Assembly: GCA_038243585.1 (NCBI GenBank)
Contig: JBBSQY010000033.1
Span: 1-36,941, forward strand
DNA length: 36,941 bases
Source: Candidatus Sumerlaeales bacterium
GTDB taxonomy: Bacteria; Sumerlaeota; Sumerlaeia; Sumerlaeales; Sumerlaeaceae
Direction: 5' to 3'
A program made the translations under genes and the position numbers. The notes below the pieces were generated by a model. It searched no databases, was not told where the DNA came from, and was given only the letters and a program-made list of their open reading frames with translations. Shown here one piece after another: positions 993-32,836 of this stretch. Numbering within the stretch: the stretch's first letter is position 1; every line of letters begins with the position of its first letter.

Positions 993-3104
993 TTATTGAG
1001 GCGTAAGACGCATAGCGTCAACGCTAACGCTGACGTTTGCGCCCTGCGGCGCGGTAACGCCTTCTGTGCTGACTGTTAATACAGGAACACCCTGGCCGGC
1101 TTTAAACTGGTAGGTTCCAAGCACCTGCCATTGGCCACTTTGAGTCTGGTTTATTGTCGTCTGCTGCGGGCCTGTGGCGGTATTTACCGTGACAGGTACG
1201 CTTGCGGAGCGAAACTGCGGCGTTCCCCCAATCCACCAGAGTGCGACTTCAAATGCGCCATCTGCTGGAATAGAAGCGTTAAAGGTCGCCGTTTTAACCG
1301 CGGCCGGATTGACTTGAGCCATGACAGATCCGCCCTCATAGCTGTCCGTGGTGCTGGCAGACTGGGTCCAGTCGGCGGCAGGCGACAGTGTAATTCCTCC
1401 TGGTGTTTTGTCATCCACAATAATGACATTTGCCGCTGCGGCTGGCACAGCAGGAGTTGGCAGTGAAGGCATCATGCTTGAAGGCGTAGCCGTGGCCGGT
1501 AATCCGGACGGCAGTGATGGCAACGCCGATGCGATCTCGGTCGAGGCCGCCGGAAGGGTAGGCAGGCCCTGGGCATCCACCGCAACAGGAACTGCTGGCA
1601 GGGTGGGCAAGCCTGGCACCTCGGACGAAGTAACAGGCGCTGCGGGCAACTCAGGCAACAGACCAGGGGCGGGGGCCGCTGGCGCAGACGGAGTTGGAGA
1701 GATAACTGGAGCGGCCGGCATTACGGGAAAGGCCGGTACCGGAGTGCCTAAGACGGGCGTCGGGATAAGCGGTGCCGCCGAAGGAAGCATTGGCATAACA
1801 GGGTCGCCGTTAACCACTGCCGGAGTAGTCGCGCTTACGTTGACCCCAGCATCGCTAAGCACGGGGAACGGGTTCACTTCCGTGGCAGGATAAATGGTCG
1901 TCTCAGCACTGGCAGTTGCTTCAAGACCAGGCTGCAAGACCGTGAGGGATGAGACAGGGGGCACAGAGGTCGAGATGGAAGCGGCATTGCCCGTTTCGTC
2001 TCCTGCAAGTCCCGTGCTGGCAACAAGGTTTGAATTTATTCCAGCGGTAATTGGGTTCAACGTTTCTTCGTTCGCAACACCGGGAACATAACGTGCGGCT
2101 GCATAATCTGCTTCCGTGCTCATGATGGCTGATGCGGGCGCCGTCACATAGGCAGGAACCTGCGGCTCAACAGGGGTCGTTCCAGCGTAGCCTTGCGGCC
2201 AGTAAAAAGTGCCATAAGGCAGGCTTGTGTAGATGTCCGTGCGCAGAAACGGGGCGCTGGCATAAACATAATTGGCTGGTGGCGACATGATGTTCGACGG
2301 ATATGGAGTCGCTCCGGGCAGTAGGACCCGTGTTACTGTCTGCGGCATATAAATGATTGGTGGTCCAGCGAACGCAGGGGATCTCAAGTATGGGGTACCA
2401 ACAGGGGCAGCGGCCGCAAGGCCCTGACCGTACGGTGCCGCTATCCCAGCTTCTGTGCTGACGACAGCTGGAGCCGGGAAAAGCGGAATGCCCATGCCGC
2501 GCGGGGTCGGTTCCGCGATGGCGGCAGTTGTGCGAGTATATGAGTAGCTGCGTCTGCTGCCTTTTTCCAACTGTTCGCCCTGAACGACTTGTTGAGTGAC
2601 CACGGCTGCAGCATCATGCTCTGGTGGTGGCACCATCCGGGCCACGGGTGGTGGTTCTGGAGCTCCGAGTTCAGTGGTTACGCGCGTGGTTTCCGTGCGA
2701 ACAGTAGCTGCCGAATTGGCTTGCGCAAGCTGTCTTTGACCGGGGCTTAAAGGCTGCACGTCGCCGGTCACTTTGACGTTATAGGCCGATGCGGGCAACG
2801 TTTTTTCAAGGGTCGAGGAAAGGCTTATTCTATCACCTACCTTGACCATTCCTGCCGCGCCGGCGGGCAACGTGATTACTGTGCCCCCCTGGCCGCCGCT
2901 GGATTTCACCGTGGCGTCTGTAACCAGACTTCCCTCGCGAACAACATAAACTTTGTCACCATCAGGACGCGCGGGGATATCCACGACCAACTCGCCGGTT
3001 GCCGCGCTTGGCACTGCGGAGACTATTCCTAATTCCTGTGACCATGCTGCGCCAGCAGACGCAAGCACCAACGATAACGATATCGTACCAACTACCTTGC
3101 TCAT
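993..3104 (-). CDS. Secreted Pro/Ala-rich protein with C-terminal golvesin/xanthan-lyase-type carbohydrate-binding-like beta-sandwich
   Basis: Signal peptide (MSKVVG...AAWS/Q; ATG at 3104 with GGGAG SD) and a long low-complexity P/A/T linker. The C-terminal IIVDD...W...ATF...G.FEV.LWW...VPVTV...INQ...GQWQVLGTYQF..G...V.VDAMRL pattern is typical of golvesin_C-like domains. Confidence 0.75.
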   Translation of the reverse strand: MSKVVGTISLSLVLASAGAAWSQELGIVSAVPSAATGELVVDIPARPDGDKVYVVREGSLVTDATVKSSGGQGGTVITLPAGAAGMVKVGDRISLSSTLEKTLPASAYNVKVTGDVQPLSPGQRQLAQANSAATVRTETTRVTTELGAPEPPPVARMVPPPEHDAAAVVTQQVVQGEQLEKGSRRSYSYTRTTAAIAEPTPRGMGIPLFPAPAVVSTEAGIAAPYGQGLAAAAPVGTPYLRSPAFAGPPIIYMPQTVTRVLLPGATPYPSNIMSPPANYVYASAPFLRTDIYTSLPYGTFYWPQGYAGTTPVEPQVPAYVTAPASAIMSTEADYAAARYVPGVANEETLNPITAGINSNLVASTGLAGDETGNAASISTSVPPVSSLTVLQPGLEATASAETTIYPATEVNPFPVLSDAGVNVSATTPAVVNGDPVMPMLPSAAPLIPTPVLGTPVPAFPVMPAAPVISPTPSAPAAPAPGLLPELPAAPVTSSEVPGLPTLPAVPVAVDAQGLPTLPAASTEIASALPSLPSGLPATATPSSMMPSLPTPAVPAAAANVIIVDDKTPGGITLSPAADWTQSASTTDSYEGGSVMAQVNPAAVKTATFNASIPADGAFEVALWWIGGTPQFRSASVPVTVNTATGPQQTTINQTQSGQWQVLGTYQFKAGQGVPVLTVSTEGVTAPQGANVSVSVDAMRLTPQ

Positions 3105-3320
3105 TCGCAAACTCCCATAACCGTCTTAACCCAAAACTCCAGCAGAACCGCAACCTACTGCATCTGATTCCAACACAGAAACTGGCTTAGCAATAAATTT
3201 CCGAAAATAGATCATGCCTCTCGTGGCAGGGCAAGCACATTGTTAACTGTATGGACGCTTTTCTGTTTAAAGCAGTTGAGACATAAAGAAAAAGCGTGAA
3301 GCAGTACGATAGACTTAGTT

Positions 3321-5333: not shown

Positions 5334-6434
5334 TTAATCAAACAACTCCCAGCCGGCGGCTGAGGAAGGTCCTGTTTTTGGCGTAATCGCCAGCAGGTTT
5401 GTCGCAGCTGGAAAAGTTACAAAGCCGCCTATATAAACCGTAGCCAGTGGGCTGGCTGCGCCTCGCGTAAAGGGACGCGCTGGAAAATCCACTCGAGCGG
5501 AGGATACGTATCCGGCGTTGGTTTCAGCAAGCACGGTGCCCGTGGCGGTACCTGCCAGAAGGTTATCAGGGAGTTGAAACATCCTGATTGTGCCACCGTT
5601 TTCGCTCGTGATCAGCTTGCCGTCGCCAGTGGTGCCAAGGTCGGAAATACTGTTTGTCAGTTGGCTTGTGGTGACGATGTCGTTAAATTCTCCCGCATCA
5701 ATATTGTCGTCCGCATTGGTGTTTACCAGCGCCGCAACGCGTCCGGCCGGGAACTCCGAAATTCCACAGACCACATGGCCCTCCGGAGTAAAAGCCAGGC
5801 CGCCGTTGTAATTGAACCCGGAAAACCATGCCGCTCCCGAGGGGTAGTAGGCAGGGTTGGACTCAGGGTTTTGAATTACAAGTATTTCCGAGTTTGTGCC
5901 ACCATCCGCCGTCTGGACGAGGAGCGATCCTGCGGGAATACCGGCCTGATTGCCTGCGGGGGCAACGGTAAGCTGCGCACCCGTAAAGCTGCCATTAGTT
6001 AAAATAGGCGCTATCAGTTCAGTGATTTCTCCGGCGTCAAGCCAATCGCCATCCGCATTTAAATCCCGAGCGCGAAGAATCGTATCTGAAGTAAAATCGT
6101 CGTTATCTGTGATTGCCAGGTCGCCGTTAGCGAGAACGGCCAGTCCGCCGACGTTGCCTACAACGGGCGTAACCGTGCGGGTGGTTCCGGTGTCGAGTTG
6201 CACTTCGAGAATGGAGTGCATGGAGTAGGGCCCAACTGAAGCATAAAGGATGTTTTCGTCGGCAGGGTGCTGAGCGATGGCTCCGCCGAATCCCACTCCG
6301 AGTTCAATGGAATGTGCCAGGTAGCCGGGCGCGAGGGTGGTTATTTCAAGAGTATCGGCAATGGCTGGCTGGTTCATGGCAAAAGCTACGGCCGCAGCGA
6401 TTCCACTGTGGGTGATGATGTTAAATAATTTCAA
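5334..6434 (-). CDS. Secreted hypothetical protein (probable beta-propeller) downstream of the cobalamin riboswitch; C-terminal W-x-L-F tail
   Basis: TTG start with AAGGA SD and a signal peptide (..PAIA/D). Repeated GGLA(V/F)xxxGxL-type blade motifs and two D-x-N-x-D-G/D Ca-binding-like loops (DLNADGDWLDAGE, NTNADDNIDAGE). Ends SSAAGWELFD. Confidence 0.8.
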   Translation of the reverse strand: MKLFNIITHSGIAAAVAFAMNQPAIADTLEITTLAPGYLAHSIELGVGFGGAIAQHPADENILYASVGPYSMHSILEVQLDTGTTRTVTPVVGNVGGLAVLANGDLAITDNDDFTSDTILRARDLNADGDWLDAGEITELIAPILTNGSFTGAQLTVAPAGNQAGIPAGSLLVQTADGGTNSEILVIQNPESNPAYYPSGAAWFSGFNYNGGLAFTPEGHVVCGISEFPAGRVAALVNTNADDNIDAGEFNDIVTTSQLTNSISDLGTTGDGKLITSENGGTIRMFQLPDNLLAGTATGTVLAETNAGYVSSARVDFPARPFTRGAASPLATVYIGGFVTFPAATNLLAITPKTGPSSAAGWELFD

Positions 6435-6603
6435 TGTCTTTTCCTTGTGACCTGATTCCGAGGTCTGGTATTTTGCGTTTCGCTGGCGCGGACGATTAGT
6501 CCGTCGCTTTCTTTCATGGGATCATAGTAAAGATCCCGCGCGTTACAATGCGCGGCTCTACCTGCTTCTTTCTGTCCTTTCCGGCGATGATCCATCGCCT
6601 TTT

Positions 6604-6785
6604 CTCGGAGTTCGGTCTTCTGACTTGCGGATCAACCTCGGTTCTTCAGCCTTCCCAACCCGTGTCGCGGCCAGTGGCTACTGCTTTGAAGAACGTTGTC
6701 CCCGCTTACAGCGGCGGTCCCGTGCCGGATTTTCACCGGCTTCCCGTTAACTCTAAAAAAGAAAACTCACGGCGCACCTTCCGGT
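6604..6785 (-). promoter_or_regulatory. Cobalamin (B12) riboswitch
   Basis: Minus strand reads GGAAGGT...TTAACGGGAAGCCGGTGAAAATCCGGCACGGGACCGCCGCTGTAAGCGGGG...GCCACTGG...GGGAAGGC...CCGCAAGTCAGAAGACC. All core conserved segments are present, including the B12 box. Confidence 0.93.
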
Positions 6786-6921: not shown

Positions 6922-7554
6922 TTAGGCCCGAACTGTCTCCGGGTAGATTTCTGCTTCTACATCGATGATCTGCAAGAATGTCGCTTTCGCGGCTTCCACT
7001 ATTTTGTCGCCCTCTTCTGGTGTGAACTCAAGCTGTTCCATGGCAGATTTGTAATCTGACCACTTCTGCCGCTGTTCATCTCCATAAGGATCAAGGTAGC
7101 GGGTGCCATCCTCGCCCTCAAGTCGCCATGCGCCGCGCAGGGCCATGGCGATGTATTTGGCTCCATTGTTGCTGCCTTCAAACACATAATGAAAGCCCAG
7201 GAGCGCAAGGTCGTCTGCTGATTCGATTGCCTCAAGCAGCTTTCCCGTGGCTTCACACGGCGCAGCCAGTTCAGGGTCGCCACCGTAGAATCGCAAATCG
7301 GCCGCGGCGCGCTCTTCCTGAAATTGATAATCATGGACGACCGCTGCAATGCGGGGATCGTTGGTACGCGCTTGCCTTAGTTTCGATTCCAAGGTGCGGT
7401 GAATGAGATAGCGCTGGGCCAGTTGCTCACTATAGACATCTTTTGGAAGCTTCCCTTTGACCAGATCCTTTTCGAGAGCGGCGTGTTCCGCCTGCTGATG
7501 CAGCGGCCAGGTCTCTTTTTTCAGTCGTTCTGTAATTGTAATTGCTTCGGTCAT
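6922..7554 (-). CDS. hemO: Biliverdin-producing heme oxygenase (HemO/PigA/HmuO family)
   Basis: LKKETWPLHQQAE carries the proximal His; LLGFHYVFEGSNNGAKYIA is the distal-helix YVxEGSxxG motif. The start overlaps the MFS stop (ATGA). Confidence 0.92.
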   Translation of the reverse strand: MTEAITITERLKKETWPLHQQAEHAALEKDLVKGKLPKDVYSEQLAQRYLIHRTLESKLRQARTNDPRIAAVVHDYQFQEERAAADLRFYGGDPELAAPCEATGKLLEAIESADDLALLGFHYVFEGSNNGAKYIAMALRGAWRLEGEDGTRYLDPYGDEQRQKWSDYKSAMEQLEFTPEEGDKIVEAAKATFLQIIDVEAEIYPETVRA

Positions 7555-8891
7555 GCCGGGAGTTTCCTTTCGTCTGTTAAATCAATTTTTGATATTTTTT
7601 CGTCAATGGGCGATGCATGATTATCAGCATAGTCACGGGGAACGGTAGATGCAGACGAGTCGATCGCAGCATTTCGCCGGGCGAGAATCCAGGCAAGTCC
7701 ACCGCAGCCAATTTCCACGGCACCAACGCTGGCGAAGGTGAAGGCATAACCCATGATTTTACCTGCCACCCCGGCATAAACAAAACCTAGCAGAAGACCG
7801 AAAGAACCCATAAGATTAAAAGCAGAAATAGCGGTGGCTTTTTCGTCCGGTTTGACCATCTGACCCACGAGTACCAGGTTTGCAACAAACTTCAGACCTG
7901 TGAAGAGCCCCGCGAGACCGATGAACACCAGGAACATCCAGGGAAAATCGAAGACCACAGCCAACGAAAGACAAAGGCCATAGCCCACCGAACTGACGGC
8001 TATAGCGCGCCACGCCCCGATACGACTTGTCAAGGTCCCCGCATAACCACTGGCTCCTGCGAACATAATCCAGAAGGCGGTCATCACGGCCCCGGCGGCG
8101 GTGAAGCCAGTTAGCCCGTAACGATCTTTCAGAACCAGGGCCGGCAATATGGCCAGAAGCGCAAACGAGAATTTGTCTACAAATCCGAACATGATCGGAA
8201 GCCATAAACGCGGAACGCCGCGGAGAGAGGCAATCATGGCGCGAGCGCCCGGCTCCCGAACGGTTACATTTTCAGGGCGTTTTACTTCCCACAACAGCAG
8301 GAGCGCCGCAAGCGCCAGCCCGCCGCCGGCAATTCCATAGACGACGTTTATCCCCGCGCCGGCCATTCCCAGAAGTAATGTAAGGGCGCTACCCAGTAAG
8401 TAGCCGGCAGGGATCGAAGTCATAAAAACAGCCATGACTCGAGACCGCGTTTGCGGCGAGCAAAGGTCCAGCGCGCGGGTCATCAACATACCGATGCCAA
8501 CGATTCCGAGCGCTCCATCCAGAAACCGAAGGGCCAAAAGGGAGGAATACTCGCTGGGGAAGGGAAGGAGCATAGTTGTTATGCCGGTTCCAAAACATCC
8601 TGCAAGCGCCAGGGGAACCCGACGCCCCCACCGATCCGAGATAAGGCCGGCCAGCAACCCCAACAGCAGAATCTGCGGCAGGGAATGAACCAGCATAAAC
8701 ATGGAAGTGCCGCGCTGATCCAGATGGAACTTGTTGCGAACCAGCTCATTCAGGGTCGGTGTAATGACCGCCATGGAACAGAACATCATTGTTGTTACCA
8801 CTACCAGGCGCAGCAAAGGACCCCAAGGCATTTGCCCGGGGTCCATGCTGTGCCGACTGGCAGGTGGCATAAGGTGTTTGTCAGTTTTCAT
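7551..8891 (-). CDS. Major facilitator superfamily transporter
   Basis: About 12 hydrophobic segments, motif A (GLISDRWGRR) and motif B (LRFLDG). Confidence 0.9.
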   Translation of the reverse strand: MKTDKHLMPPASRHSMDPGQMPWGPLLRLVVVTTMMFCSMAVITPTLNELVRNKFHLDQRGTSMFMLVHSLPQILLLGLLAGLISDRWGRRVPLALAGCFGTGITTMLLPFPSEYSSLLALRFLDGALGIVGIGMLMTRALDLCSPQTRSRVMAVFMTSIPAGYLLGSALTLLLGMAGAGINVVYGIAGGGLALAALLLLWEVKRPENVTVREPGARAMIASLRGVPRLWLPIMFGFVDKFSFALLAILPALVLKDRYGLTGFTAAGAVMTAFWIMFAGASGYAGTLTSRIGAWRAIAVSSVGYGLCLSLAVVFDFPWMFLVFIGLAGLFTGLKFVANLVLVGQMVKPDEKATAISAFNLMGSFGLLLGFVYAGVAGKIMGYAFTFASVGAVEIGCGGLAWILARRNAAIDSSASTVPRDYADNHASPIDEKISKIDLTDERKLPA

Positions 8892-8918
8892 ATAACTTCA
8901 TGCCACTGTTGTTAGTAA

Positions 8919-9746
8919 TTAGTAGAGGTCCCAGTTACTCGCTGCGCTGTGGGTCGAAATTTCCATAATGAGAGCAGGTGCCTGTTGCAGGGTGCCATTG
9001 GCGGGCTCGGAAACTCCCTCTTTCGTTACAAGACGCGGATAGGTAGCAGGAGGTCCGCCGGGCTGCGCGGCTGGAAAAGTACCGACCAAGCTCCACATTG
9101 CAATCCCGGATTCCAGATCGTCCCGCAATTGCTGGCGAACATCCGAGTTGCTAACGTCGAGGTTGAAAGTAATTGGAAATGCTTCAGCAGGTGAAGCACT
9201 GCCGTCATAAGATGGATCAAAAGTCCCGACCGAGTATGGTGTAGCCGCCAGGTTATCTTCTGCCCGGTTGCCAGTGCCCAGTTCAATCAAGTATGGGTCC
9301 TGCAGTGGGGTGGCGCTTACAACTCCGGGCCCCACATATCCCTGGGTTTCTGTCCAAGTGGCTTCGGTGAAGCCGTTTTGACCAGTGATTCCGGTAGCGA
9401 ACATTTTCAACTGGCCAGATGCAGGATTCCAGGCGTCGGCGTTTGCCGCCTGCCATAATACGATTCGCGCACTTGTAATCGCGTAAGGAGTGTTTTCCAG
9501 TTCTGGGGGGAGTGCCACAGTCCACTTCATATGCATTGATGAGTAATGTCTGTTGAACATATATGGGCTGGTCTCATCTTTGTAAAAAGCGTAAACTGGA
9601 ATCGTTTTACCTGTGCCCGTGCTGTGGTTCGGAGTCAGATTGGCGTCGCCTGTTAAAACGCCATTTACGGTTCCGGCTTGAGCCGGGGTGCCAAGTACGG
9701 AGAGCACCAACGCAATGCCTGCCGCCGTCATAAAACTTTGTAACAT
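8919..9746 (-). CDS. Secreted hypothetical protein with C-terminal W-x-L-Y tail
   Basis: ATG at 9746 preceded by AAGGA SD. Signal peptide MLQSFMTAAGIALVLSVLGTPAQA/G; ends SAASNWDLY. Confidence 0.8.
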   Translation of the reverse strand: MLQSFMTAAGIALVLSVLGTPAQAGTVNGVLTGDANLTPNHSTGTGKTIPVYAFYKDETSPYMFNRHYSSMHMKWTVALPPELENTPYAITSARIVLWQAANADAWNPASGQLKMFATGITGQNGFTEATWTETQGYVGPGVVSATPLQDPYLIELGTGNRAEDNLAATPYSVGTFDPSYDGSASPAEAFPITFNLDVSNSDVRQQLRDDLESGIAMWSLVGTFPAAQPGGPPATYPRLVTKEGVSEPANGTLQQAPALIMEISTHSAASNWDLY

Positions 9747-9824
9747 ACAATCATCCTTTTTCGTAGGGGTTATTAAACAGAAAATCAAGTGTTGCCGTTG
9801 AACTAAAGGCATGCATGCGACCTG

Positions 9825-10433
9825 TTACCAGCTGTCAACCCCTGGTAGCGGCGTCCGCGCTATGCCGCCTCGAGCGACAATCTCTCCGCCGCTAATGGTT
9901 CCATTAGTGGGGTCATAAATGTACGTCGCGTAACTGCCGGACCGGATTGAGTATTCGGGGAAAGCGTAATACGGAAAGCTAATAGTAAGATCCGGGCCGC
10001 CGCTGGTTAGAGAATAGGACATCTTGTCGTTTTTAAGCCCTGTTTCACCCGGCCCAGAGACGTGGGACGCGAGCTCGTACAAATAAACGTCAAGCGGCTC
10101 ATTAGGATCAACCACATTAATACTGTCCTCATAGTTATGCCCGGTGGTACGGACAAATGGATCGCGCGGACGAGAGGTTAGATAAGATATCGGCGTCGTA
10201 AGCGGGTTCAGGCGCACACTAGGCATTGGTTCGTAAAAAGTTCCGCTAGGCGGATACGCATTGTTGTCCAACTGATACGTTTCAAGAGCTGTAGCCATGG
10301 TGCGCATCTCGGCTCGAACTCTGGCGGCCTTGGCACGCACTTGCGCCTGTAAAAAGTTGGGTGTGGCGATTGCTGCAAGAATGGCTATAATCGCCACTAC
10401 AATCAGTAGTTCTATGAGCGTAAATGCTCTCAT
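9825..10433 (-). CDS. Prepilin-type N-terminal cleavage/methylation protein (type IV pilin / GspG-like pseudopilin)
   Basis: MRA|FTLIELLIVVAIIAILAAIATPNF class III signal, GspG-like helix ..ALETYQLDNNAYP, SGGPD, and C-terminal YDPTNGT.S.GEI motif. Confidence 0.92.
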   Translation of the reverse strand: MRAFTLIELLIVVAIIAILAAIATPNFLQAQVRAKAARVRAEMRTMATALETYQLDNNAYPPSGTFYEPMPSVRLNPLTTPISYLTSRPRDPFVRTTGHNYEDSINVVDPNEPLDVYLYELASHVSGPGETGLKNDKMSYSLTSGGPDLTISFPYYAFPEYSIRSGSYATYIYDPTNGTISGGEIVARGGIARTPLPGVDSW

Positions 10434-10775
10434 TACCACCTGGGTCCCTGTGTGTCTTTGGATATGTTCGACTGAAAACTTAAAATCACTGCCATTATCT
10501 CCTGCTACAACTTATAAACTTTAGTATGCAAAGAGCACACCAGACTCATCCGAGTCTCTAAATTGTTTATTTTGAATGTTATACATAAGAATAGAGTTGG
10601 GCCAGTGGGGAAATACCGGCTCGTATAAGCCACCGGGTGCGGCAAATAGTGCACTTTCTCAATTTAGTTAATAATGCCTTGGCTTCGGTGCTTTCCTCAC
10701 CGTATGCTAAACCCTTCCGAGCGATTTAATTGCTATTTTTCCCCCGAAAAAGAAGTAGTTTTTGGCGCAAACCAG

Positions 10776-10794
10776 GATAATGATAGCGCTTTTC
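10776..10794. promoter_or_regulatory. Candidate Fur box
   Basis: GATAATGATAGCGCTTTTC matches the E. coli Fur consensus GATAATGATAATCATTATC at 14/19 positions (hand count). It lies in the long intergenic region upstream of the pilin-heme oxygenase operon. Confidence 0.35.
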
Positions 10795-12837: not shown

Positions 12838-13755
12838 TTAGTAGAGATTCCAGTCATTTACATCAGAGGTTGGAGGACCAGCTCTTAGCTGATCAAAGAT
12901 GCCCTGACGTTCTTGAGCAGTACGTCCCGTGAATCCTACTTCTCTGTAGAACATACCCGGTCTACCGTTCAAGTATATGGCGGCTGGCGTTGTGCCAACT
13001 ACGGTTCCATTAACTTTGTATGTAATGACCGTGCCCACGCACTCAATGCGCAGTGTATGCCAGCCATTGGCTGTTAGTACAATAGGCGATCCAACTGGCG
13101 TAGATGGTCCTGAAACATTAGGAAACTCTTGAGCCTGGATTTCTTTAGTCCGGTAGTTATAAACGATTCCATAACTTCCATCGAGATCAGGACTGTATCC
13201 GTAATCTCTTCTCGTCAATTGAGTTGGACCATCATCACGTGCTGCACGTGCCACAAGACCGGCTGTTTCAACGTCAGCGACAGTGGCGGAAATCGAGGAA
13301 ACCGGGCAGAACAAATCAACCTGAACATAATAATTGGCATCGTCACTATTACCAAAGAAAAGGGCGTTATAACCACCGTCATCTCCAAGAACCACGGCCG
13401 TGCCTGGACCTGTAGCTCCAGGGCGAGTGTTGGCGATAATCGGAGGTAGCGCATTGCCACGATCCGGATTGTTGTGAGGACCGGTAACCGTCAAAACCGG
13501 CGACTCTGGGCTTCCGTCAGTGGCCCATGTATTTATATAACGTATAGATGTCGTAGGAACCGTTGATGCATCAGTGCCTGTGTAATCTGTAAATTCGGAT
13601 CCATCAGGTTTGGAGGCGCCGAATGTCCCGGTACCGGTGTTATTACCCCGTGTGCCCACGTTGAACTGATCAACAATGCTGACCGTATCTAAATCCTGCG
13701 CGAACGCGCCTGCTGTCAATGTAGCTGCTAAAACAAATAAGCCAAGTCGTTTCAT
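12838..13755 (-). CDS. Secreted protein with concanavalin-like/DUF1080-like beta-sandwich and C-terminal W-x-L-Y tail
   Basis: Signal peptide MKRLGLFVLAATLTAGAFA/Q with AAGGAG SD. GWHTLRIECVGTVITYKVNG...GRPG is typical of LamG/DUF1080 folds. Ends TSDVNDWNLY. Confidence 0.8.
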   Translation of the reverse strand: MKRLGLFVLAATLTAGAFAQDLDTVSIVDQFNVGTRGNNTGTGTFGASKPDGSEFTDYTGTDASTVPTTSIRYINTWATDGSPESPVLTVTGPHNNPDRGNALPPIIANTRPGATGPGTAVVLGDDGGYNALFFGNSDDANYYVQVDLFCPVSSISATVADVETAGLVARAARDDGPTQLTRRDYGYSPDLDGSYGIVYNYRTKEIQAQEFPNVSGPSTPVGSPIVLTANGWHTLRIECVGTVITYKVNGTVVGTTPAAIYLNGRPGMFYREVGFTGRTAQERQGIFDQLRAGPPTSDVNDWNLY

Positions 13756-13943: not shown

Positions 13944-15236
13944 TTGAGCGCTAACCCCAGCCCCCCTGCCGACGCTAATACCCATTTGGATGATGAATAC
14001 CTGCAATACGTGCGTGATGAACCGGACGCCGTTTTAAAGGTTCTTAATCTTTCCAAACACTTTCCCATCCGCAAAGGTTTTTTCAGCCGGGTGACGGGGC
14101 AGGTGCGCGCTGTGGAAGATGTCTCCTTTTTTCTACGCCCGAAAGAGACGCTTGGGCTGGTGGGGGAATCGGGCTGTGGCAAGACCACCACGGGTCGTCT
14201 GATCCTGCAGCTTATCCGGCCCACCACAGGCCAGGTGCACGTGAAGGGGTCGCCGGACCTGACTGGTCTGTCGAATCGGCAACTGCTCCCCTTTCGACGC
14301 CGTATGCAGATGATTTTCCAGGATCCTTACAGCTCTTTGAATCCCCGTATGACCGTTGGCTCAATCATCGGCGAAGCTTTGACGATCCACAAACTGGCCT
14401 CAGGGAAAAAGAAGGTTGAGCGGATTCAGGAGCTCCTGAAGGAAGTGGGCTTGAATCCCGGCTCGATCAAACGGTTTCCCCACGAGTTTAGCGGCGGGCA
14501 GCGCCAGCGCATTGGTATCGCGCGGGCCTTGGCGGTGGAGCCGGAGGTTATTATCGCCGATGAGCCGGTAAGCGCGCTGGATGTATCGATTCAATCGCAG
14601 GTGATCAACCTGCTCGAACGCCTTCAGAACGAGTACGGCCTGAGCTACGTGTTTATCGCCCATGATTTGAGCGTGGTGGGTCACATCAGCCACCGGGTGG
14701 CGGTGATGTATCTGGGGCGGATTGTCGAGATTGGCCCGAAGTATAACCTGTTTGACACGCCGAAACATCCATATACCCAGGCGCTGCTGGCAGCGGTGCC
14801 GAAGCCGGACCCCCATAAGCGGGGCACCCGGGCGATCCTGCACGGTGATGTGCCGTCGCCGGCAAACCCGCCTTCGGGCTGCGTATTTCACACTCGTTGT
14901 CCTATGCGTTTCGAGCCGTGTGATAAAATAATCCCGCCGCTGCTGCGTCACGGCGGCGAGCATTTCACGGCCTGTCATCTTTATGATCCCCGATACAACG
15001 GCGGGGTTACCGACGCCTCCATTAATGTGATGAAGGCTATGGGGAATATTGCAGCCCAACCGCCAAGCCCGGAAGTCGTACGTCCGATGAAACAAGAGCA
15101 GGTGCGGGACGACCGGGGCGACGCGCCGGAAGACATACCGGAGCCGGATATCGTATCTCAGCGTAAAGATTCCGCCGTGTTTCCATCTGACGCGGACCGT
15201 CCGGATATTTTGCCACCCGGACCACCCATCGTCTGA
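13944..15236 (+). CDS. Oligopeptide/dipeptide ABC transporter ATP-binding subunit (OppF/AppF/DppF-like) with extra C-terminal tail
   Basis: Walker [26 protein letters not shown], and the oligopeptide C-terminal HPYT...GCVFHTRC...C...ACH Fe-S motif. Confidence 0.93.
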
Positions 15237-21067: not shown

Positions 21068-21922
21068 TTACTTTCTGGTCTTCGGATCCAGCGCGTCGCG
21101 GAGACCGTCTCCAAGCAGATTAAACCCGGTTACTGTAAGCAAAATGGCAAGACCCGGGAACAGTGGAAGCCATTCAAAAAACAGGATATAGTCCCGGCCT
21201 TCACTGAGCATTCCACCCCATGTAGGGGTTGGCGGTTGTGCGCCCAGTCCCAGGTAGCTAAGGCCGGCTTCCGCCAATATCGCGGTGCTCACCCGGAGCG
21301 TCCCGTACACAATCAGTGTTCCAACCAGGTTGGGAATCAGATGCTTAAACATGATTCGATTCGCACCGGCGCCTGCCACGCGTGCGGCGTCCACGTAATC
21401 TTCCTCTCGCAGGCTCAACACGTTTCCACGAACCAGGCGTGTATAACTGGGGAAGCTGGCTATGCCGAGCGCAAGAAGCACGTTTTGCAGGCTGGGTCCC
21501 AACGCTGCGGTGATGGCCAGGGCTAGAAGCAGAAATGGAAAGGCCAGCATAATATCCGTAATCCGCATCACTACGGTGTCCCACCAGCCACCGAAAAACC
21601 CGGCGCTGGTGCCTAACACGAGGCCGATGCTCATGCCGATGGCTACGGCCACAAATCCTACAAAGAGGGAGATGCGAGCGCCGTACAGAACCCGCAGGCC
21701 AACGTCGCGGCCGAACTGATCGGTTCCCATCCAGTGGCCGGCGCTGGGAGGTTGTAGCGCATCCTTAAGGTTTTGACTGGCCACGGCGGAAAATGGAGCA
21801 ATCCAGACAGAAGCGATGGCGGCCAAGGCAAGCGTGATTACGATCGCCAACCCGAGAACCGCGACTTTATCACGACTGAACTTGACCCATACGAGCTTCC
21901 ATCCCAGGAAGAATTCTTTCAT
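21068..21922 (-). CDS. Peptide/nickel ABC transporter permease (DppC/OppC-like)
   Basis: HWMGTDQFGRD, EAA-loop YVDAARVAGA, LSYLGLG.QPP.P.WG, FNLLGDGLRDALDP. Confidence 0.95.
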   Translation of the reverse strand: MKEFFLGWKLVWVKFSRDKVAVLGLAIVITLALAAIASVWIAPFSAVASQNLKDALQPPSAGHWMGTDQFGRDVGLRVLYGARISLFVGFVAVAIGMSIGLVLGTSAGFFGGWWDTVVMRITDIMLAFPFLLLALAITAALGPSLQNVLLALGIASFPSYTRLVRGNVLSLREEDYVDAARVAGAGANRIMFKHLIPNLVGTLIVYGTLRVSTAILAEAGLSYLGLGAQPPTPTWGGMLSEGRDYILFFEWLPLFPGLAILLTVTGFNLLGDGLRDALDPKTRK

Positions 21923-22884
21923 TAGTCTTTTCCGCCAGAGTCGAGTCTTATGCGTGGATCAATAACTGTGTAAAGGATGTCGACGATAAGATTTACGCCG
22001 GAATAAACCACAGCCGTCAGCAGGACTCCCGCCATTACAACCGGGGCGTCGCGACCCTTGATGCCGTCAACCATCCATTGGCCTATGCCCGGCCAGGCGA
22101 AAACGCTTTCGATAATAATACTTCCTTCCAACAGCGCAGCAATAGACAAGCCGCTCAGGGTTACAAACGGGATCAGGGCGTTTCTCAGGGCGTGGCGCAT
22201 CAGGACGACGCGTCCGCTGACGCCCTTGGCCCTTGCGGTCCGCACGAAATCCGAATGGAGAACCTCGAGCAGGCTGGCACGCAGGATCCGGCAAAGGGAA
22301 GCAGCCGTTCCCACACCCAGCGTGATGGCGGGCAGAGCGAGATGCGACAAGTGACTTGGCAGGTTGAAAAGCAGCGATCCATCGCCACGTCCCGCCGGCG
22401 GAAACCAACCGAGTTTTCTGCTGAAAAGGATGATTAACTCAATGCCGAGCCAGAATCCCGGCACGGCAAGAAATACAAAAATAACAGTGCGAGCTGTCTG
22501 ATCAAACATTCCCCCCGGTTTGCGCACCGACATTATCGCGACGAAAACCGAGATCAATGTCGCGATAAACATCGTGATTACCGCCAGTTCCAATGTGGCC
22601 GGAAGGCGCCTGACAAGTTCAGGAAAAACGGGAAGATGAGAGCCAGTGTAGCTTCTGCCAAGATCGCCCCGTAGCGCGTCCTTCAGCCACAGAACGTATC
22701 GCACTGGAATAGGTTTACCCAGGTTCAGTTCTTTGCGCAGAGCGATGATCTGTTCCGGTGGCGCATCCGGGGCCAGCAGACTTCGGATTGGATCGCCGCT
22801 TATGGCCAACAAAAAAAACACCAGCATGGAAACCCCAAGCAGCGTCGGAACCATCAAGAAGATGCGTTTGACTAAATGCTGCAT
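21922..22884 (-). CDS. Peptide/nickel ABC transporter permease (DppB/OppB-like)
   Basis: GDLGRS, RLPATLEL, FVRTARAKG, RHALRNAL, ESVFAWPGIG, DPRIR. ATG at 22884 with GGAGG SD. Confidence 0.95.
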   Translation of the reverse strand: MQHLVKRIFLMVPTLLGVSMLVFFLLAISGDPIRSLLAPDAPPEQIIALRKELNLGKPIPVRYVLWLKDALRGDLGRSYTGSHLPVFPELVRRLPATLELAVITMFIATLISVFVAIMSVRKPGGMFDQTARTVIFVFLAVPGFWLGIELIILFSRKLGWFPPAGRGDGSLLFNLPSHLSHLALPAITLGVGTAASLCRILRASLLEVLHSDFVRTARAKGVSGRVVLMRHALRNALIPFVTLSGLSIAALLEGSIIIESVFAWPGIGQWMVDGIKGRDAPVVMAGVLLTAVVYSGVNLIVDILYTVIDPRIRLDSGGKD

Positions 22885-22915
22885 AATGCCTCCAAGCACA
22901 GAGAAGGAAGAGTGA

Positions 22916-24556
22916 TCATAGTCGACCTTCAAATCCGCCCATGGTTACGCCATGAAACTCATATTCGCCGGCCGGATGCACGTGCATGTTGTTGATCCTG
23001 GGATTGATACCCCACAGCATCCGCGAACTGTATGCAAAAATCCAAGGGCAATCCTGGACGATAATCGCCTGCAACTGATCGTATATCTGGTTTCGTTTGG
23101 TCTCGTCCACAGTGGCGAGAGATTCCTGCAAGAGACGGTTCACATCTTCATTTTTATAGAAGCTGCTGTTACTGGTGCTGGTGCTGCGAAAAAGCGGATC
23201 GAGGAAGCCGTGGGGGTGTTCACCGCCGACCCAGCCGGCCGCGAACAGATCGAACACCCCATCCTTTTCCGGAAACCATTGCAGATCCAATGTTTGGTAT
23301 GGATCAAACTTTTCCCAGTAAACGTTTCGGTCAAATCTTAATATTTCGACTCGAATACCGATATCGCGTAGTTGATCTGCAACCACGACGCCAAGATTAG
23401 TGTCGTCCACGTCGTCCTTGGTCCAGAGAACGACGTTCATTCCATCCGGATACCCAGCCTCCACCAAAAGCGCTTTGGCTGCGTCTGGATCGTATCCCAG
23501 GGTTTCCATGTTTTTGTTAAAGTTCGGCATGACGGTCGGAAGCGGTCCGACAAGAGGATCGGCATTGTCGCGGAATCCATATTTTACCAGGGCGTTGCGG
23601 TTAATGGCCATGTTCGCAGCCCGCCGAACCCGCACGTCATTAAACGGGGGCTTCATATTATTAAAGCCGACATAGCGAACCGCCAGTTTGGGGGCCTTTA
23701 TTATTTCCACCTGGGCAGATTTTTCGGCCACTTCCGTGTGAGCAAACGTAACCGAACACAGATCGATCGCGCCCTGTTCCAGCAGAATCAGCCGGGTGGT
23801 CGGTTCTCGAACAACGAGAAACTCCACTTCGGGAATGCTGAACTCGTCGGCACGCCAGTAGTACGGATTTCGTTTCAGCAGGATTCGCTCGCCCTGTTGC
23901 TGCTCCGCCACCATGTACGGGCCGCTGCCCGTTGGGTTCAGGGTAAAAGCTTCGTTTCCATATTTTTTAACGGCGGTCGGGCTTACAATTCCGCCGAACG
24001 AGTCTCGCAGCACCACCGGCCATACCGAGTAGGGCTCGGTCATTTCAAACCGAACCGTCAGGGGGTCGATGGCTTCCACGCTTTTCATCTTCAGCACCTT
24101 GGAGCGCCGCTGCGAGGCTGTAGCAGGGTTTTTGATCCTGTCGAAATGGAACTTCACCGCCTCCGCGTCACATGGGGTGCCATCGGAAAACTTTACGCCT
24201 GGGCGGAGTTTAAATATCCACGAGTAGGCGTCGTCATGAGATTCCCAGGATAACGCCAGCCTCGGAATGAGCTCCAGTTCCCGGTTATACCAGGTCAGGG
24301 TGTCGTAAATATTACATATTATGTAAGAATCCAGCGCCATAGTTTGAAATGCAGGGTCGAGGGTCTGCACGCGCTCGTCCATGGCTACGACCATTCTCTT
24401 TACCAGTTCTTCCGGGGACCGTTTCTCCGTGCATCCGGAAAGCACGACCGCCCCCGGCGGCAGGCAAACCCCCAGCACGCGCATTCCCATGGCACCGGCG
24501 GCGACTTTTAAAAAGCCGCGGCGATCTGTAATTAAGCGGGAGTCACGTTTAGACAT
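22916..24556 (-). CDS. Peptide ABC transporter substrate-binding protein (family 5, DppA-like), Tat-exported lipoprotein
   Basis: ATG at 24556 followed by RRGFLK twin-arginine motif and LSG/C lipobox. LA.SWE...FKLRPGVKFSDG and P.GSGPY SBP_bac_5 motifs. Confidence 0.93.
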   Translation of the reverse strand: MSKRDSRLITDRRGFLKVAAGAMGMRVLGVCLPPGAVVLSGCTEKRSPEELVKRMVVAMDERVQTLDPAFQTMALDSYIICNIYDTLTWYNRELELIPRLALSWESHDDAYSWIFKLRPGVKFSDGTPCDAEAVKFHFDRIKNPATASQRRSKVLKMKSVEAIDPLTVRFEMTEPYSVWPVVLRDSFGGIVSPTAVKKYGNEAFTLNPTGSGPYMVAEQQQGERILLKRNPYYWRADEFSIPEVEFLVVREPTTRLILLEQGAIDLCSVTFAHTEVAEKSAQVEIIKAPKLAVRYVGFNNMKPPFNDVRVRRAANMAINRNALVKYGFRDNADPLVGPLPTVMPNFNKNMETLGYDPDAAKALLVEAGYPDGMNVVLWTKDDVDDTNLGVVVADQLRDIGIRVEILRFDRNVYWEKFDPYQTLDLQWFPEKDGVFDLFAAGWVGGEHPHGFLDPLFRSTSTSNSSFYKNEDVNRLLQESLATVDETKRNQIYDQLQAIIVQDCPWIFAYSSRMLWGINPRINNMHVHPAGEYEFHGVTMGGFEGRL

Positions 24557-24656
24557 GCGATCAACCGTGACACCCCATAGCGTGCTTGCAACATCGAAAA
24601 GAAACTTTCCGGTATAAATTGTGCCAGTCATAAAAAAGCCGAAGGAGACATGATCC

Positions 24657-25769
24657 ATGCGCGCTGTTGCGATATACCCCAAAAGTGGGAAGCTCGATGT
24701 CATTGAGACTCCCACACCCTCGATTAAATCTCCCCATGATGTGCTGGTCAAGACGTTGAGCGTCGGGCTTTGCGGCACAGATCATGAAATCGCTGCCCAG
24801 GATTATGGGCGCGCTCCTGATGATGGAGATTACCTTATCCTGGGCCATGAGTGCCTGGGAGAGGTTTTGGAAGTCGGCGCTGCCGTAAACCGCTTTTCTC
24901 CGGGGCAACTCGTGGTGCCGTCTGTCCGGCGACCTTGCGATTCAGAATCTTGCGCCGCTTGTCGAAGCGGTCGCCCGGATTTTTGCCTTACCGGCGACTT
25001 TACGGAACGAGGCATATCGGGTGCTCACGGGTTCATGTGTGAGCAGTTTGTTGAATCCGAACAATACCTTCACCCGGTGCCTGACGAAATGCGGGATTTT
25101 GGCGTGCTGACAGAGCCGCTGACCATCGCCATGAAAGCCCTGATCCAGATTCGCGACATACAGGATCGCCTGCCTTATATGAAAACCGCCAACTTCAAAA
25201 ACGGGATTCTGGAAGGCCTAACGGCCGTAGTGCTGGGGGCTGGTCCTGTTGGATTGCTCGGCGCGCTGGCACTTCTGAACTCTGGCGCACGCGTATTCGT
25301 GTATTCTCGCAAGGAGGAACCGAACGAGAACTCAAAGATCATTGAAAACGCAGGCGGCGAATACGTATCGTCCAGCACCGTAAGCGCGGAACAATTCGCC
25401 GAATTAACCGGAAATGTCGATGTGATTTACGAAGCCACAGGCGCATCGTCATTTGCGTTTAAAATGACAAAGTTGCTGGGGCGAAACAGCATCTATATCC
25501 TCACAGGGGTGCCGGGCCGCAAAGGTCCGGTCGAAATTGACGCGGATCGGATTATGCGCGATATGGTTCTGAAAAATCAGTTAATCGTCGGAACCGTAAA
25601 CGCCGGCGCACCGGCTTATGAGGCCGCCATTAATACCCTGGGAGACATCCATAAGCGCTGGCCAGCTTCCATCGATGGAATTATTACTGACGTGCTCAAA
25701 CCGGAAGACGTGGGCCAGGCTTTAAAAACAAGAAGCTCGGGTATAAAACAAGTGGTGCAGTTCACATGA
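24657..25769 (+). CDS. gdh: Zn-dependent glucose 1-dehydrogenase (MDR family, archaeal/Thermoplasma-type)
   Basis: GLCGTD.EI, ILGHE, VRRPC..C..C...DFC...ERGI...HGF, EPL, GAGPVG, GTVNA. Confidence 0.88.
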   Translation: MRAVAIYPKSGKLDVIETPTPSIKSPHDVLVKTLSVGLCGTDHEIAAQDYGRAPDDGDYLILGHECLGEVLEVGAAVNRFSPGQLVVPSVRRPCDSESCAACRSGRPDFCLTGDFTERGISGAHGFMCEQFVESEQYLHPVPDEMRDFGVLTEPLTIAMKALIQIRDIQDRLPYMKTANFKNGILEGLTAVVLGAGPVGLLGALALLNSGARVFVYSRKEEPNENSKIIENAGGEYVSSSTVSAEQFAELTGNVDVIYEATGASSFAFKMTKLLGRNSIYILTGVPGRKGPVEIDADRIMRDMVLKNQLIVGTVNAGAPAYEAAINTLGDIHKRWPASIDGIITDVLKPEDVGQALKTRSSGIKQVVQFT

Positions 25770-31200: not shown

Positions 31201-31297
31201 AATTCACAAGTAACACGCCAGAGCGATAAAATGTTTTTTGAATCATTCTGAAAGTTGCATGAAACGAATGACTGGCAAAATCATATATGCCGTTTTA

Positions 31298-32836
31298 ATG
31301 GACACGAACGACGATGGCATAGTTTATCTTGTGGGCGCGGGGCCGGGCGATGCCGGGCTAATAACTGTGCGCGGCGCGGACTGTCTGCGCCGGGCCGACG
31401 TTGTCGTGTATGATAACCTCGCAAATCCTGAGTTACTCCGCTACGCTCCGGCTACCGCTGAACTTATATACGCGGGAAAAATTGCCGATCTGCACACGAA
31501 GAGTCAGGCGGAAATAAACGAAATTTTGGCAGATAGAGCGCGGCGTGGGCTGACGGTGGTGCGGCTTAAGGGCGGCGATCCGTTTTTGTATGGCCGTGGC
31601 GGCGAAGAAGCGGCGTGGCTGGTTGGCCTTGGTATCCGGTGGCAAGTGGTGCCGGGCATTTCATCCGCCATCGCAGTACCGGCATACGCAGGAATTCCTG
31701 TGACTCACCGCACCATGACCGGCTCGGTTCATGTGGTGACCGGCCATGAAAACATGGAGGGCGTAGGCCCCGACGTGGACTGGTCCCTACTGGCGAAAGC
31801 CCGCGGGACAATTGTGGTACTTATGGGCGTAAAAAATCTGGCAGTGATCGCCCGGCGACTTATTGAGCACGGCCTGTCCGGAGCCACGCCTGCGGCCATG
31901 ATAAGGTCAGGAAGTCTGGCGGAGCAGGAGACTCTGGTCTCGCGTCTGGACAAAATTGCTGAGGATGTGGCCACCACCGGATTGAAGCCCCCGGCGGTTT
32001 GCGTTATTGGAGAAGTCGTCGATCTACGGGAAACCCTGGCCTGGGCAGAGCAGCGCCCGCTATCCGGAATGCGCATCGCCGTAACGCGGCCGTCGGATGA
32101 GAACGACAGCCTTGCCGGAGCACTCGATACGTTGGGCGCGGAGGTGGTACGAACCCCAACGCTTATGATCGTTCCAAGAAGCCTGGATGTGAGTAGCAGG
32201 CAGACCTTTGAACGGCTTGGGGCGGGAGACTTCGACTGGGTCGTGTTGACCAGCGCCAATGGAGCGCGTTTATTTGCCAGATTATTAGCCGATGAAAACA
32301 AGGACGCGCGCTGGCTGGCAGGGCGCAGGCTGGCAGCCATCGGCGCGCGGACAGCGGAGGCCATGCGTGCCCACGGACTAATGGCTGATGTGGTCGTGGC
32401 TGATTCCCGCCAGGAAGGGATGGCGGACGCCCTGTTGGCAGAACAGCCCGGGAGCGTCTTGATTGCCAGGGCTGCCCAGGCCCGACCTGTGCTGGAGGAT
32501 CGCCTGAACAAGGCAGGTGTGCAGACGGCGGTGTTGCCGTTATATGATGCAACGCCCGATCCCGTGGGGATAAACCGGCTTAAAGATTTGTTGGGACGGG
32601 AGAAGATCCATGCTGTCACATTCACGTCCGCTCGCACCTTCGAGGCCCTCGCGGAATCTGCGGCGGCAAGCGACATGGCCATTATAGAATTGCTCGGCAG
32701 CTGTGCTATCGCAGTCATTGGCCCTGTTACCCGCGCCGCGGTGGAGCAGGCTGGCGTAGCGGTAGCCATAGAATCCGACGTCGCCGACATGAAAGCTTTG
32801 GCGCAAGCCTTAGGCCGGTGGAACCAATTAAGCTAG
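31298..32836 (+). CDS. cobA: Uroporphyrinogen-III C-methyltransferase / uroporphyrinogen-III synthase fusion (CobA-HemD)
   Basis: VYLVGAGPGD.GLIT, RLKGGDP..YGRGGEE, VPGISS, then the HemD part VTRP...TSANG...AIG..TA...FTS...IGPVT. Confidence 0.95.
   Translation: MDTNDDGIVYLVGAGPGDAGLITVRGADCLRRADVVVYDNLANPELLRYAPATAELIYAGKIADLHTKSQAEINEILADRARRGLTVVRLKGGDPFLYGRGGEEAAWLVGLGIRWQVVPGISSAIAVPAYAGIPVTHRTMTGSVHVVTGHENMEGVGPDVDWSLLAKARGTIVVLMGVKNLAVIARRLIEHGLSGATPAAMIRSGSLAEQETLVSRLDKIAEDVATTGLKPPAVCVIGEVVDLRETLAWAEQRPLSGMRIAVTRPSDENDSLAGALDTLGAEVVRTPTLMIVPRSLDVSSRQTFERLGAGDFDWVVLTSANGARLFARLLADENKDARWLAGRRLAAIGARTAEAMRAHGLMADVVVADSRQEGMADALLAEQPGSVLIARAAQARPVLEDRLNKAGVQTAVLPLYDATPDPVGINRLKDLLGREKIHAVTFTSARTFEALAESAAASDMAIIELLGSCAIAVIGPVTRAAVEQAGVAVAIESDVADMKALAQALGRWNQLS

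Follow-up and report, generated by a model that had tools for sequence, protein, structure and literature searches.

Active heme uptake across the outer membrane is known via TonB-dependent receptors. Canonical heme loci of diderm bacteria combine such a receptor (HmuR, PhuR, ChuA or HasR) with the HmuTUV ATP-binding cassette (ABC) importer and with HemO, HemS or ChuW/X, according to the portion of PMC6449446 consulted. A putative heme operon of a different composition is described here from a Candidatus Sumerlaeales bacterium of the phylum Sumerlaeota (assembly GCA_038243585.1). It lies at positions 6,922 to 10,794 of contig JBBSQY010000033.1, the 36,941 nucleotides of which constitute the window, and encodes in this order a type IV pilin, an exported protein termed SEC that ends in a W-x-L-Y tail (proteins with this tail are called tagged), a major facilitator superfamily (MFS) transporter and a heme oxygenase (HO). 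The cassette would resemble a canonical heme uptake locus in its working and departs from it in the receptor and the ABC importer. The common features are HO in the operon itself, HmuTUV-like ABC, HemS/HutX, ChaN and HutW-like genes in homologous loci, and, in relatives, a putative operator held in common with feoAB. The differences are that a pilin and a tagged protein occupy the slot of the receptor, that an MFS protein occupies the slot of the ABC importer, and that there is no conserved Fur box of the Escherichia coli type.

A dedicated pilin with a single exported partner is familiar from TcpB-TcpF and CofB-CofJ, in which a type IVb minor pilin is paired with an exported protein bearing a short aromatic peptide. 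There the peptide is N-terminal and the context is export and adhesion, whereas here the tag is C-terminal, is carried by about 70 proteins and is found in a heme context. Heme has also been connected with the pilus machinery: in pilQ mutants of Neisseria gonorrhoeae, heme entry depends on PilQ and PilT (Chen et al., 2004, as related in the portion of PMC6449446 consulted). Heme can accordingly pass the outer membrane via a pilus secretin aided by PilT; as related there, the gonococcal case is a leak in a mutant with no dedicated pilin or partner, whereas here a dedicated pilin clade lies inside heme operons. For Akkermansiaceae MUL2, in a Verrucomicrobiota family, the part of PMC13174399 consulted ties type IV pilus-like genes to nutrient acquisition and proposes pilus-linked glycan attachment. 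Pilus-like genes serve nutrient acquisition in that account as well, but with a glycan substrate, PilM and an archaeal-type pilin, as opposed to the GspG-like pilin, the one tagged partner and the heme enzymes of the present locus.

No account of a pilin-linked heme cassette was found in the literature searched, most subscription papers and supplements being outside its scope, and the main texts of two Sumerlaeota papers (PMC8092238, PMC10866078) do not mention pili, heme or TonB. The operon represents a real, conserved heme-utilization architecture that is apparently undescribed.

The operon and its relatives

The original prediction, made from the nucleotide sequence alone, described four linked and co-oriented genes, and family matches, gaps and overlap bear this out. 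All four are on the minus strand, with gaps of 78 nt and 27 nt and an ATGA overlap between MFS and HO, in a genome of 3.4 Mb that is 89.7% complete. The pilin matches N_methyl (PF07963) and TIGR02532 above cut-off and, in Pfam, T2SSG at 21.9 bits (cut-off 21); its class III signal, Phe1, Glu5 and hydrophobic helix are those of the type IV pilin superfamily. Its open reading frame spans 9825-10439, the ATG at 10433 being the likely start. The pilin is not a GspG equivalog (TIGR01710, 56 bits against a cut-off of 89) and the locus is not a type II secretion system operon; a separate GspG-like gene and a minor pseudopilin cluster are found, as judged by eye, on contigs C5 and C45 of this genome. 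SEC starts at 9746, as in the deposited annotation, ends in ASNWDLY and has a signal peptide that was called by eye; it has no match in Pfam (E 0.01) or NCBIfam. In an alignment with human HO-1, whose proximal heme ligand is His25, His19 of HO occupies that position. HO looks like an intact heme oxygenase and is a putative heme-degrading enzyme.

Conservation was assessed over 75 genomes of the phylum. The SEC profile matches 16 genomes at 17 loci. A pilin is directly upstream of SEC at 14 of these; of the remaining three, two are truncated by contig ends and the third has a SEC fragment and no pilin, which leaves 14 of 15 assessable loci with the pair. The linkage on which the prediction depended is conserved, the complete pilin-SEC-MFS-HO order being present at five of the 17 loci, from three families. 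Incomplete versions comprise pilin-SEC-MFS (where a contig ends), SEC-MFS-HO (where one begins), pilin-SEC-HO, pilin-SEC-SEC-HutX and SEC fragment-MFS; six loci consist of a pilin and SEC with nothing further, one of these six being located behind a DtxR-family gene, and one further locus is an edge-cut SEC. At L082:7448-8270, SEC is a C-terminal fragment behind an opposite-strand, transposase-like open reading frame (by eye), and the MFS gene is intact.

HO is found in 24 of the 75 genomes, that is, in 14 of the 16 that have SEC versus 10 of the 59 others. Among 28 HO loci, a type-A pilin lies within three genes at six and a type-B pilin (see below) at ten, three are truncated where a contig ends and the remaining nine have neither. 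As a background for this genome, a generic pilin lies within three genes and on the same strand for 70 of 2629 genes. At L027:5831-9741, HO is accompanied by a divergent pilin outside both heme clades and then by a pair of exported paralogues that differ in their tails.

A quick tree of 45 pilins places the 13 SEC-adjacent pilins in one clade (SH-aLRT 93), with the B12-linked pilin as a long-branch intruder, and the pilin of the operon thus belongs to a dedicated clade, in line with the dedicated pilin that had been proposed. This clade is sister to three type-B pilins (98; joint support 89) and is apart from the other 24 paralogues of the genome. Pilins of the SEC clade have a loop, F-P-Y-[YWF]-[AP]-F, whose Tyr is invariant in 14/14; in the same place the type-B pilins have Y-C-x-x-H-P, likewise invariant in 14/14. 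Neither motif is present in those pilin paralogues of this genome that have a readable loop (19 of 25). Perhaps the loop residues, the Tyr or the Cys/His of the sister clade, bind heme.

The type-B cassette consists of the pilin and, nearly always, TailB, a tagged protein of ∼515 amino acids that is unrelated to SEC. Eight of the ten HO genomes without SEC carry it. It is found mostly with HO and HutX, often with an HmuTUV-like ABC system and at times with ChaN and a radical SAM gene resembling HutW (315-322 bits with the HutW model, cut-off 400). TailB matches are present in 14 of the 75 genomes and track the type-B pilin head; TailB belongs to no known family, and the fold atlas gave no consistent one. 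A gene-neighbourhood check had been suggested in the prediction with the expectation of heme genes, and homologous cassettes do adjoin HmuTUV, HemS/HutX, ChaN and HutW-like genes. Gene order and phylogeny indicate that the pilin and SEC are a fixed, inherited pair that stands repeatedly in the slot of the TonB receptor in heme loci.

The MFS protein has seven matches of at least 40% identity in the phylum, all in SEC loci, and nine weaker ones elsewhere, two of them in HO-less genomes. In the loci read, the SEC-linked MFS gene is never in the same gene run as HmuTUV. A close HmuU is found in only two of the eight genomes that have a SEC-linked MFS, and both also carry a type-B locus. A second, unrelated MFS gene precedes HutX in one type-B locus without ABC genes (L192). 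This context, in which MFS occurs where HmuTUV is absent, slightly favours import over export.

Outer-membrane receptors were counted genome-wide, as the prediction had advised. PF00593 receptors are found in 12 of the 75 genomes, one each, three of the 16 SEC genomes being included; there is no match in this genome at its level of completeness, and none in the heme loci read. Three of the 12 were typed: two are TIGR01782-like and one is SusC-like, and the heme-receptor model gives 55-57 bits or nothing (cut-off 317). This genome also has no close HmuU match; a lone FecCD permease on contig C41 has BtuC as its best match. It does have three secretin genes and 12 close matches to a query presumed to be PilT. 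Near-duplicate pairs of ExbD and TonB/TolA-like genes were seen by eye at G000:C81:1612-3256 and C1:24194-25832, with no TonB-dependent receptor detected.

A SEC profile search gave 270 representatives. In distant homologues, PEP-CTERM or dockerin-like ends replace the W-x-L-Y tail, which fits a surface-sorting role of the tail. Loci were read for the best 80 of 445 genome matches, mostly from Planctomycetota, and for the best 80 of 428 metagenome matches, which were ranked by a verrucomicrobial query from a heme locus and are therefore enriched for heme loci. A pilin motif is in the flanks of 56 of the former and 68 of the latter, as raw counts without a background rate for those phyla. Heme genes are in the flanks of five and 13, respectively (18/160), always with a pilin: HemS with or without HmuTUV at 12 loci and HO at six, at least three near-duplicate pairs being included. 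A metagenome scan that used close SEC homologues confirmed none. At L109:2065-3861, a SEC with a PEP-CTERM end and a pilin are in one open frame, by fusion or by a stop missing from the assembly. A second small exported protein (210-245 amino acids) often flanks SEC in other phyla; the five examples, which need not be homologous to one another, are listed in Table 1, and three of them match PEP-CTERM.

Structure of SEC and regulation of the operon

The SEC model has a pLDDT of 95. A fold search returned 8wab (Z 13.6) and 7vbo (Z 12.3), with the next row at 7.9, which identifies a CBM96-like jelly roll with insertions; 166-168 residues align with 7vbo/8wab at an rmsd (root mean square deviation) of 3.4 and 14-18% identity, SEC being about 80 residues longer. 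Atlas features give 0.94 for a CBM96/DNRLRE jelly roll. The SEC profile matched no solved structure at E 1. SEC has the jelly-roll core in common with the solved proteins and differs from them in that it stands alone, is not lyase-attached and lacks a Pfam match.

SEC had been predicted to be a hemophore or surface receptor. As a recognizable hemophore it does not hold up: the fold is CBM96-like and there is no invariant His or Met. No hemophore family is among the fold-search rows, which by themselves exclude none. The His/Tyr/Met-rich patch to which attention had been drawn, YMFNRHYSSMHM, is present in SEC and is rejected as a heme site, being unconserved (H67 in 12/67 and H72 in 1/67 aligned homologues). 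Tyr180 alone is kept in 14/14 locus-paired homologues, and it is kept in 47/67 homologues in total.

The pilin head and SEC co-folded with heme give a score of 0.39 versus 0.02 for the best control, with a contact agreement between runs of at least 57% and a partner pLDDT of at least 88. The calibration is rough for this purpose: passes at 0.60 or below comprise 18 of 157 solved complexes and also both passing mismatches of 215. Thus the test that had been suggested came out above its controls and lends weak support to a pilin-SEC complex. The single-chain pilin model is unusable (pLDDT 52.6).

The Fur box proposed upstream of the operon is present as a 14/19 match and is rejected as an operator on the grounds of chance frequency and lack of conservation. 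A single strand of the genome contains 85 matches that score at least 14/19, one of which falls within HO; when the 400 nt upstream of the operon were shuffled 60 times, a score of 14 was attained in four cases. Thirteen orthologous upstream regions reach only 10-12 against the Fur consensus. In the window the Fur-like site lies 343 nt from the pilin start, farther than the entire intergenic gap of ∼210 nt in the same-genus genome.

A different motif, the palindrome TTTG-R-Y-AT-R-Y-CAAA, is upstream of 11/13 orthologous pilin-SEC operons and of 5/9 type-B or HO regions, mostly 7-9 nt before a TTGAC box. An exact search of five genomes found 12 sites, versus three for the reversed control. Six of these are the sites used for derivation. 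The other six are new: feoAB follows two of them and other pilins follow two more, a further one lies ahead of a gene for a phosphonate-type binding protein, and the last is without clear assignment. Presence before both feoAB and pilin-SEC operons suggests an iron regulon. The palindrome is a candidate iron operator for several families, one that may flag further iron-linked pilins, and its reader may be a DtxR-type regulator. At L203, L207, L210, L212, L213, L214 and L222, the 14-bp palindrome stands ahead of feoAB, of hmuT, of an orphan TailB gene and of another two pilins. A degenerate copy in the window was considered and rejected, the best site scoring 3.2 bits versus 7.1-27.6 in leave-one-out scoring. 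In this genome the top sites of the palindrome matrix are mostly intragenic and form no clear regulon, and scans for promoters and terminators did no better than chance. Of the predicted iron regulation, a candidate operator common to orthologous operons and feoAB stands in relatives; the Fur box at this locus does not.

Proposed function and alternatives

The operon is probably a heme/iron utilization unit with external heme as its iron source. SEC would be exported and displayed via its tail, and it would bind its cognate pilin. At the cell surface the pair would capture heme itself or a carrier of it, perhaps aided by the pilin loop; that it does so in place of a TonB receptor is put at an even chance. 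The pilin, as a minor subunit of the general type IV pilus or of a pseudopilus, would then carry heme through the secretin into the periplasm, and passage by pilus retraction is judged somewhat less likely than not. MFS would bring heme across the inner membrane, a role as importer being marginally preferred to one as exporter, and HO would open the ring and free the iron. Heme use by pilin, SEC, MFS and HO together is the best explanation of the locus, and the chances of its being right as a whole are about equal to those of its being wrong.

A number of observations weigh against this explanation. Within the phylum, whose genomes are related so that counts are not independent, 6 of the 17 loci have pilin and SEC without an adjacent heme gene, and genome G062 has SEC without HO or HutX. 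In two genomes, G005 and G006, the type-B pair is present, and HO, HutX and a close HmuU are all absent. In more distant bacteria, 142 of 160 SEC loci gave no heme gene in the available flanks with the reference set used, many of these loci being on short contigs. SEC has the fold of a glycan module, solved members of which bind alginate or chondroitin sulfate, and is without an invariant His or Met. In this genome a tagged protein is beside a pilin in 6/26 cases against a 2.5% background, and at 89.7% completeness a receptor gene may have been missed. As to iron control of this copy, the palindrome is absent from the window and from the loci of its family.

The alternative that survives best, although unlikely, makes the pilin a cargo-specific adaptor for export or anchoring. 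SEC would then be hemophore-like, or would release heme outside, and heme would enter by another route, such as a porin, passive passage of a secretin or an unrecognized channel. The GspG-like matches of the pilin agree with this, TcpB-TcpF and CofB-CofJ provide a precedent, and pilins adjoin unrelated tagged proteins so often that the role of a pilin may go no further than the export or anchoring of its partner. On the other hand, most of the 74 tagged proteins have no neighbouring pilin, and export therefore needs no private pilin. In addition, genome G064 (92% complete), in which TailB has no match, retains a type-B pilin within HmuTUV-HO-HutX, G060 has the type-B pilin in a heme locus and TailB elsewhere, and the Y-C-x-x-H-P loop does not vary among type-B pilins.

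Less probable still is that pilin and SEC form a general iron-regulated adhesin or glycan module, directed at particles, prey debris or iron-bearing surfaces, which only has a regulon in common with heme genes, MFS and HO handling heme independently. The fold of SEC, its lack of a conserved heme ligand, the loci without heme genes counted above and the pilus-linked glycan attachment proposed for MUL2 (PMC13174399, in the part consulted) speak for such a module. However, the pair occurs with three different heme sets (MFS-HO, HutX and HemS-HmuTUV) in separate lineages, the sister pilin clade is also in heme loci with an unrelated partner, and in the loci read the pair is beside no feoAB or siderophore gene.

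It is improbable that HO makes biliverdin from endogenous heme for phytochrome or acts in detoxification, with MFS exporting heme or biliverdin and the upstream genes unrelated, for although this genome has a PHY-domain protein and MFS-type porphyrin or heme exporters (PefA, HatT) exist, PHY is found in 4/75 genomes versus 24/75 for HO, the other five genomes with contiguous SEC-MFS-HO have no PHY match, and MFS stands where HmuTUV is absent, with an unrelated MFS in that slot in L192. The arrangement also differs from that of BphO, an HO coupled to a bacteriophytochrome (BphP), in that the phytochrome is on another contig from HO and PHY is present in only 4/24 HO genomes; phytochrome supply may be a side role of HO here.

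Neighbouring genes and significance

Coordinates are collected in Table 1.

Table 1. Features of the window and of related loci
Feature	Position	Strand	Basis
Pilin, GspG-like type IV, SEC-associated clade; F-P-Y-Y-A-F loop and C-terminal extension	9825..10433	-	Pfam N_methyl, T2SSG
SEC, exported 275-aa protein; CBM96/DNRLRE-like jelly roll with insertions, W-x-L-Y tail; candidate surface capture partner	8919..9746	-	Structure model, fold search
MFS transporter; candidate inner-membrane heme importer in HmuTUV's stead	7551..8891	-	MFS_1, E 4.5e-38
HO, heme oxygenase; proximal His kept, YVFEGS distal helix	6922..7554	-	PF01126, E 3.4e-24, above cut-off
Cobalamin riboswitch heading next gene; end of heme unit	6593..6784	-	RF00174, 87 bits
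Exported protein under B12 riboswitch, same W-x-L-Y tail; adjoining, probably separate unit	5334..6434	-	No credible family or structure match
14/19 match to E. coli Fur consensus; chance, not part of the system	10776..10794		Genome-wide counts, orthologue comparison
Type-B cassettes inside HmuTUV-HO-HutX loci	L191:6421-8567, L028:8916-11056, L223:3771-5938 and others		
Small SEC-flanking exported proteins	L147:6079-6819, L113:6181-6867, L146:6215-6943, L118:7982-8614, L119:5276-6010		

The cobalamin riboswitch begins 137 nt past HO, which makes it probable that the gene behind it forms a unit of its own. A homologue of the B12-controlled protein, 52% identical and in the same position, is found only in the same-genus genome G001. 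A likeness to enterotoxin B subunits is weak (E 0.005, below cut-off; E 0.26) and is dismissed as chance. The original prediction had joined this gene to the operon in a tetrapyrrole-scavenging island; as a conserved unit the island is not upheld, the riboswitch link being present only in the same-genus genome, one of ten loci scanned.

Elsewhere in the window, 12838-13755 encodes another exported protein that bears the tag and belongs to no known family. The product of 993-3110 has 705 amino acids and ends in a golvesin C-terminal domain. An Opp/Dpp-type ABC system (binding protein, two permeases and ATPase) is at 13944-15236 and 21068-24778. E. coli Dpp is able to import heme, and this system is therefore an alternative inner-membrane route. 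A tetrapyrrole methylase fused to uroporphyrinogen-III synthase (31238-32836) suggests that tetrapyrroles are synthesized by the cell itself and that heme is sought for its iron.

Only one other cobalamin riboswitch is present in the genome, at G000:C10:20793-22444 (L070). It lies ahead of a tagged protein and a pilin, and both cobalamin riboswitches of this genome thus control tagged proteins. In all, the genome has 36 open reading frames with a pilin motif, 26 of them with a near-identical N-terminal type, ∼74 proteins with the W-x-L-Y tail and 12 PilT-like ATPases.

This raises the question of whether a library of substrate-specific pilins (∼26 paralogues with ∼12 PilT-like motors) replaces TonB receptors, each pilin with its tagged surface protein reeling a scarce nutrient through the secretin. 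The idea is speculative and is judged somewhat less likely to be right than wrong. If it is true, the two heme pilin clades would be its clearest case, heme being gripped by the loop of the pilin itself (Tyr, or Cys-x-x-His), and the pilin pair under the B12 riboswitch the second. A pilin-plus-partner module that takes the receptor slot and occurs in at least three phyla would amount to a second route for heme, and a function would follow for some of the orphan prepilin genes and tagged proteins (PEP-CTERM, W-x-L-Y) of these lineages.

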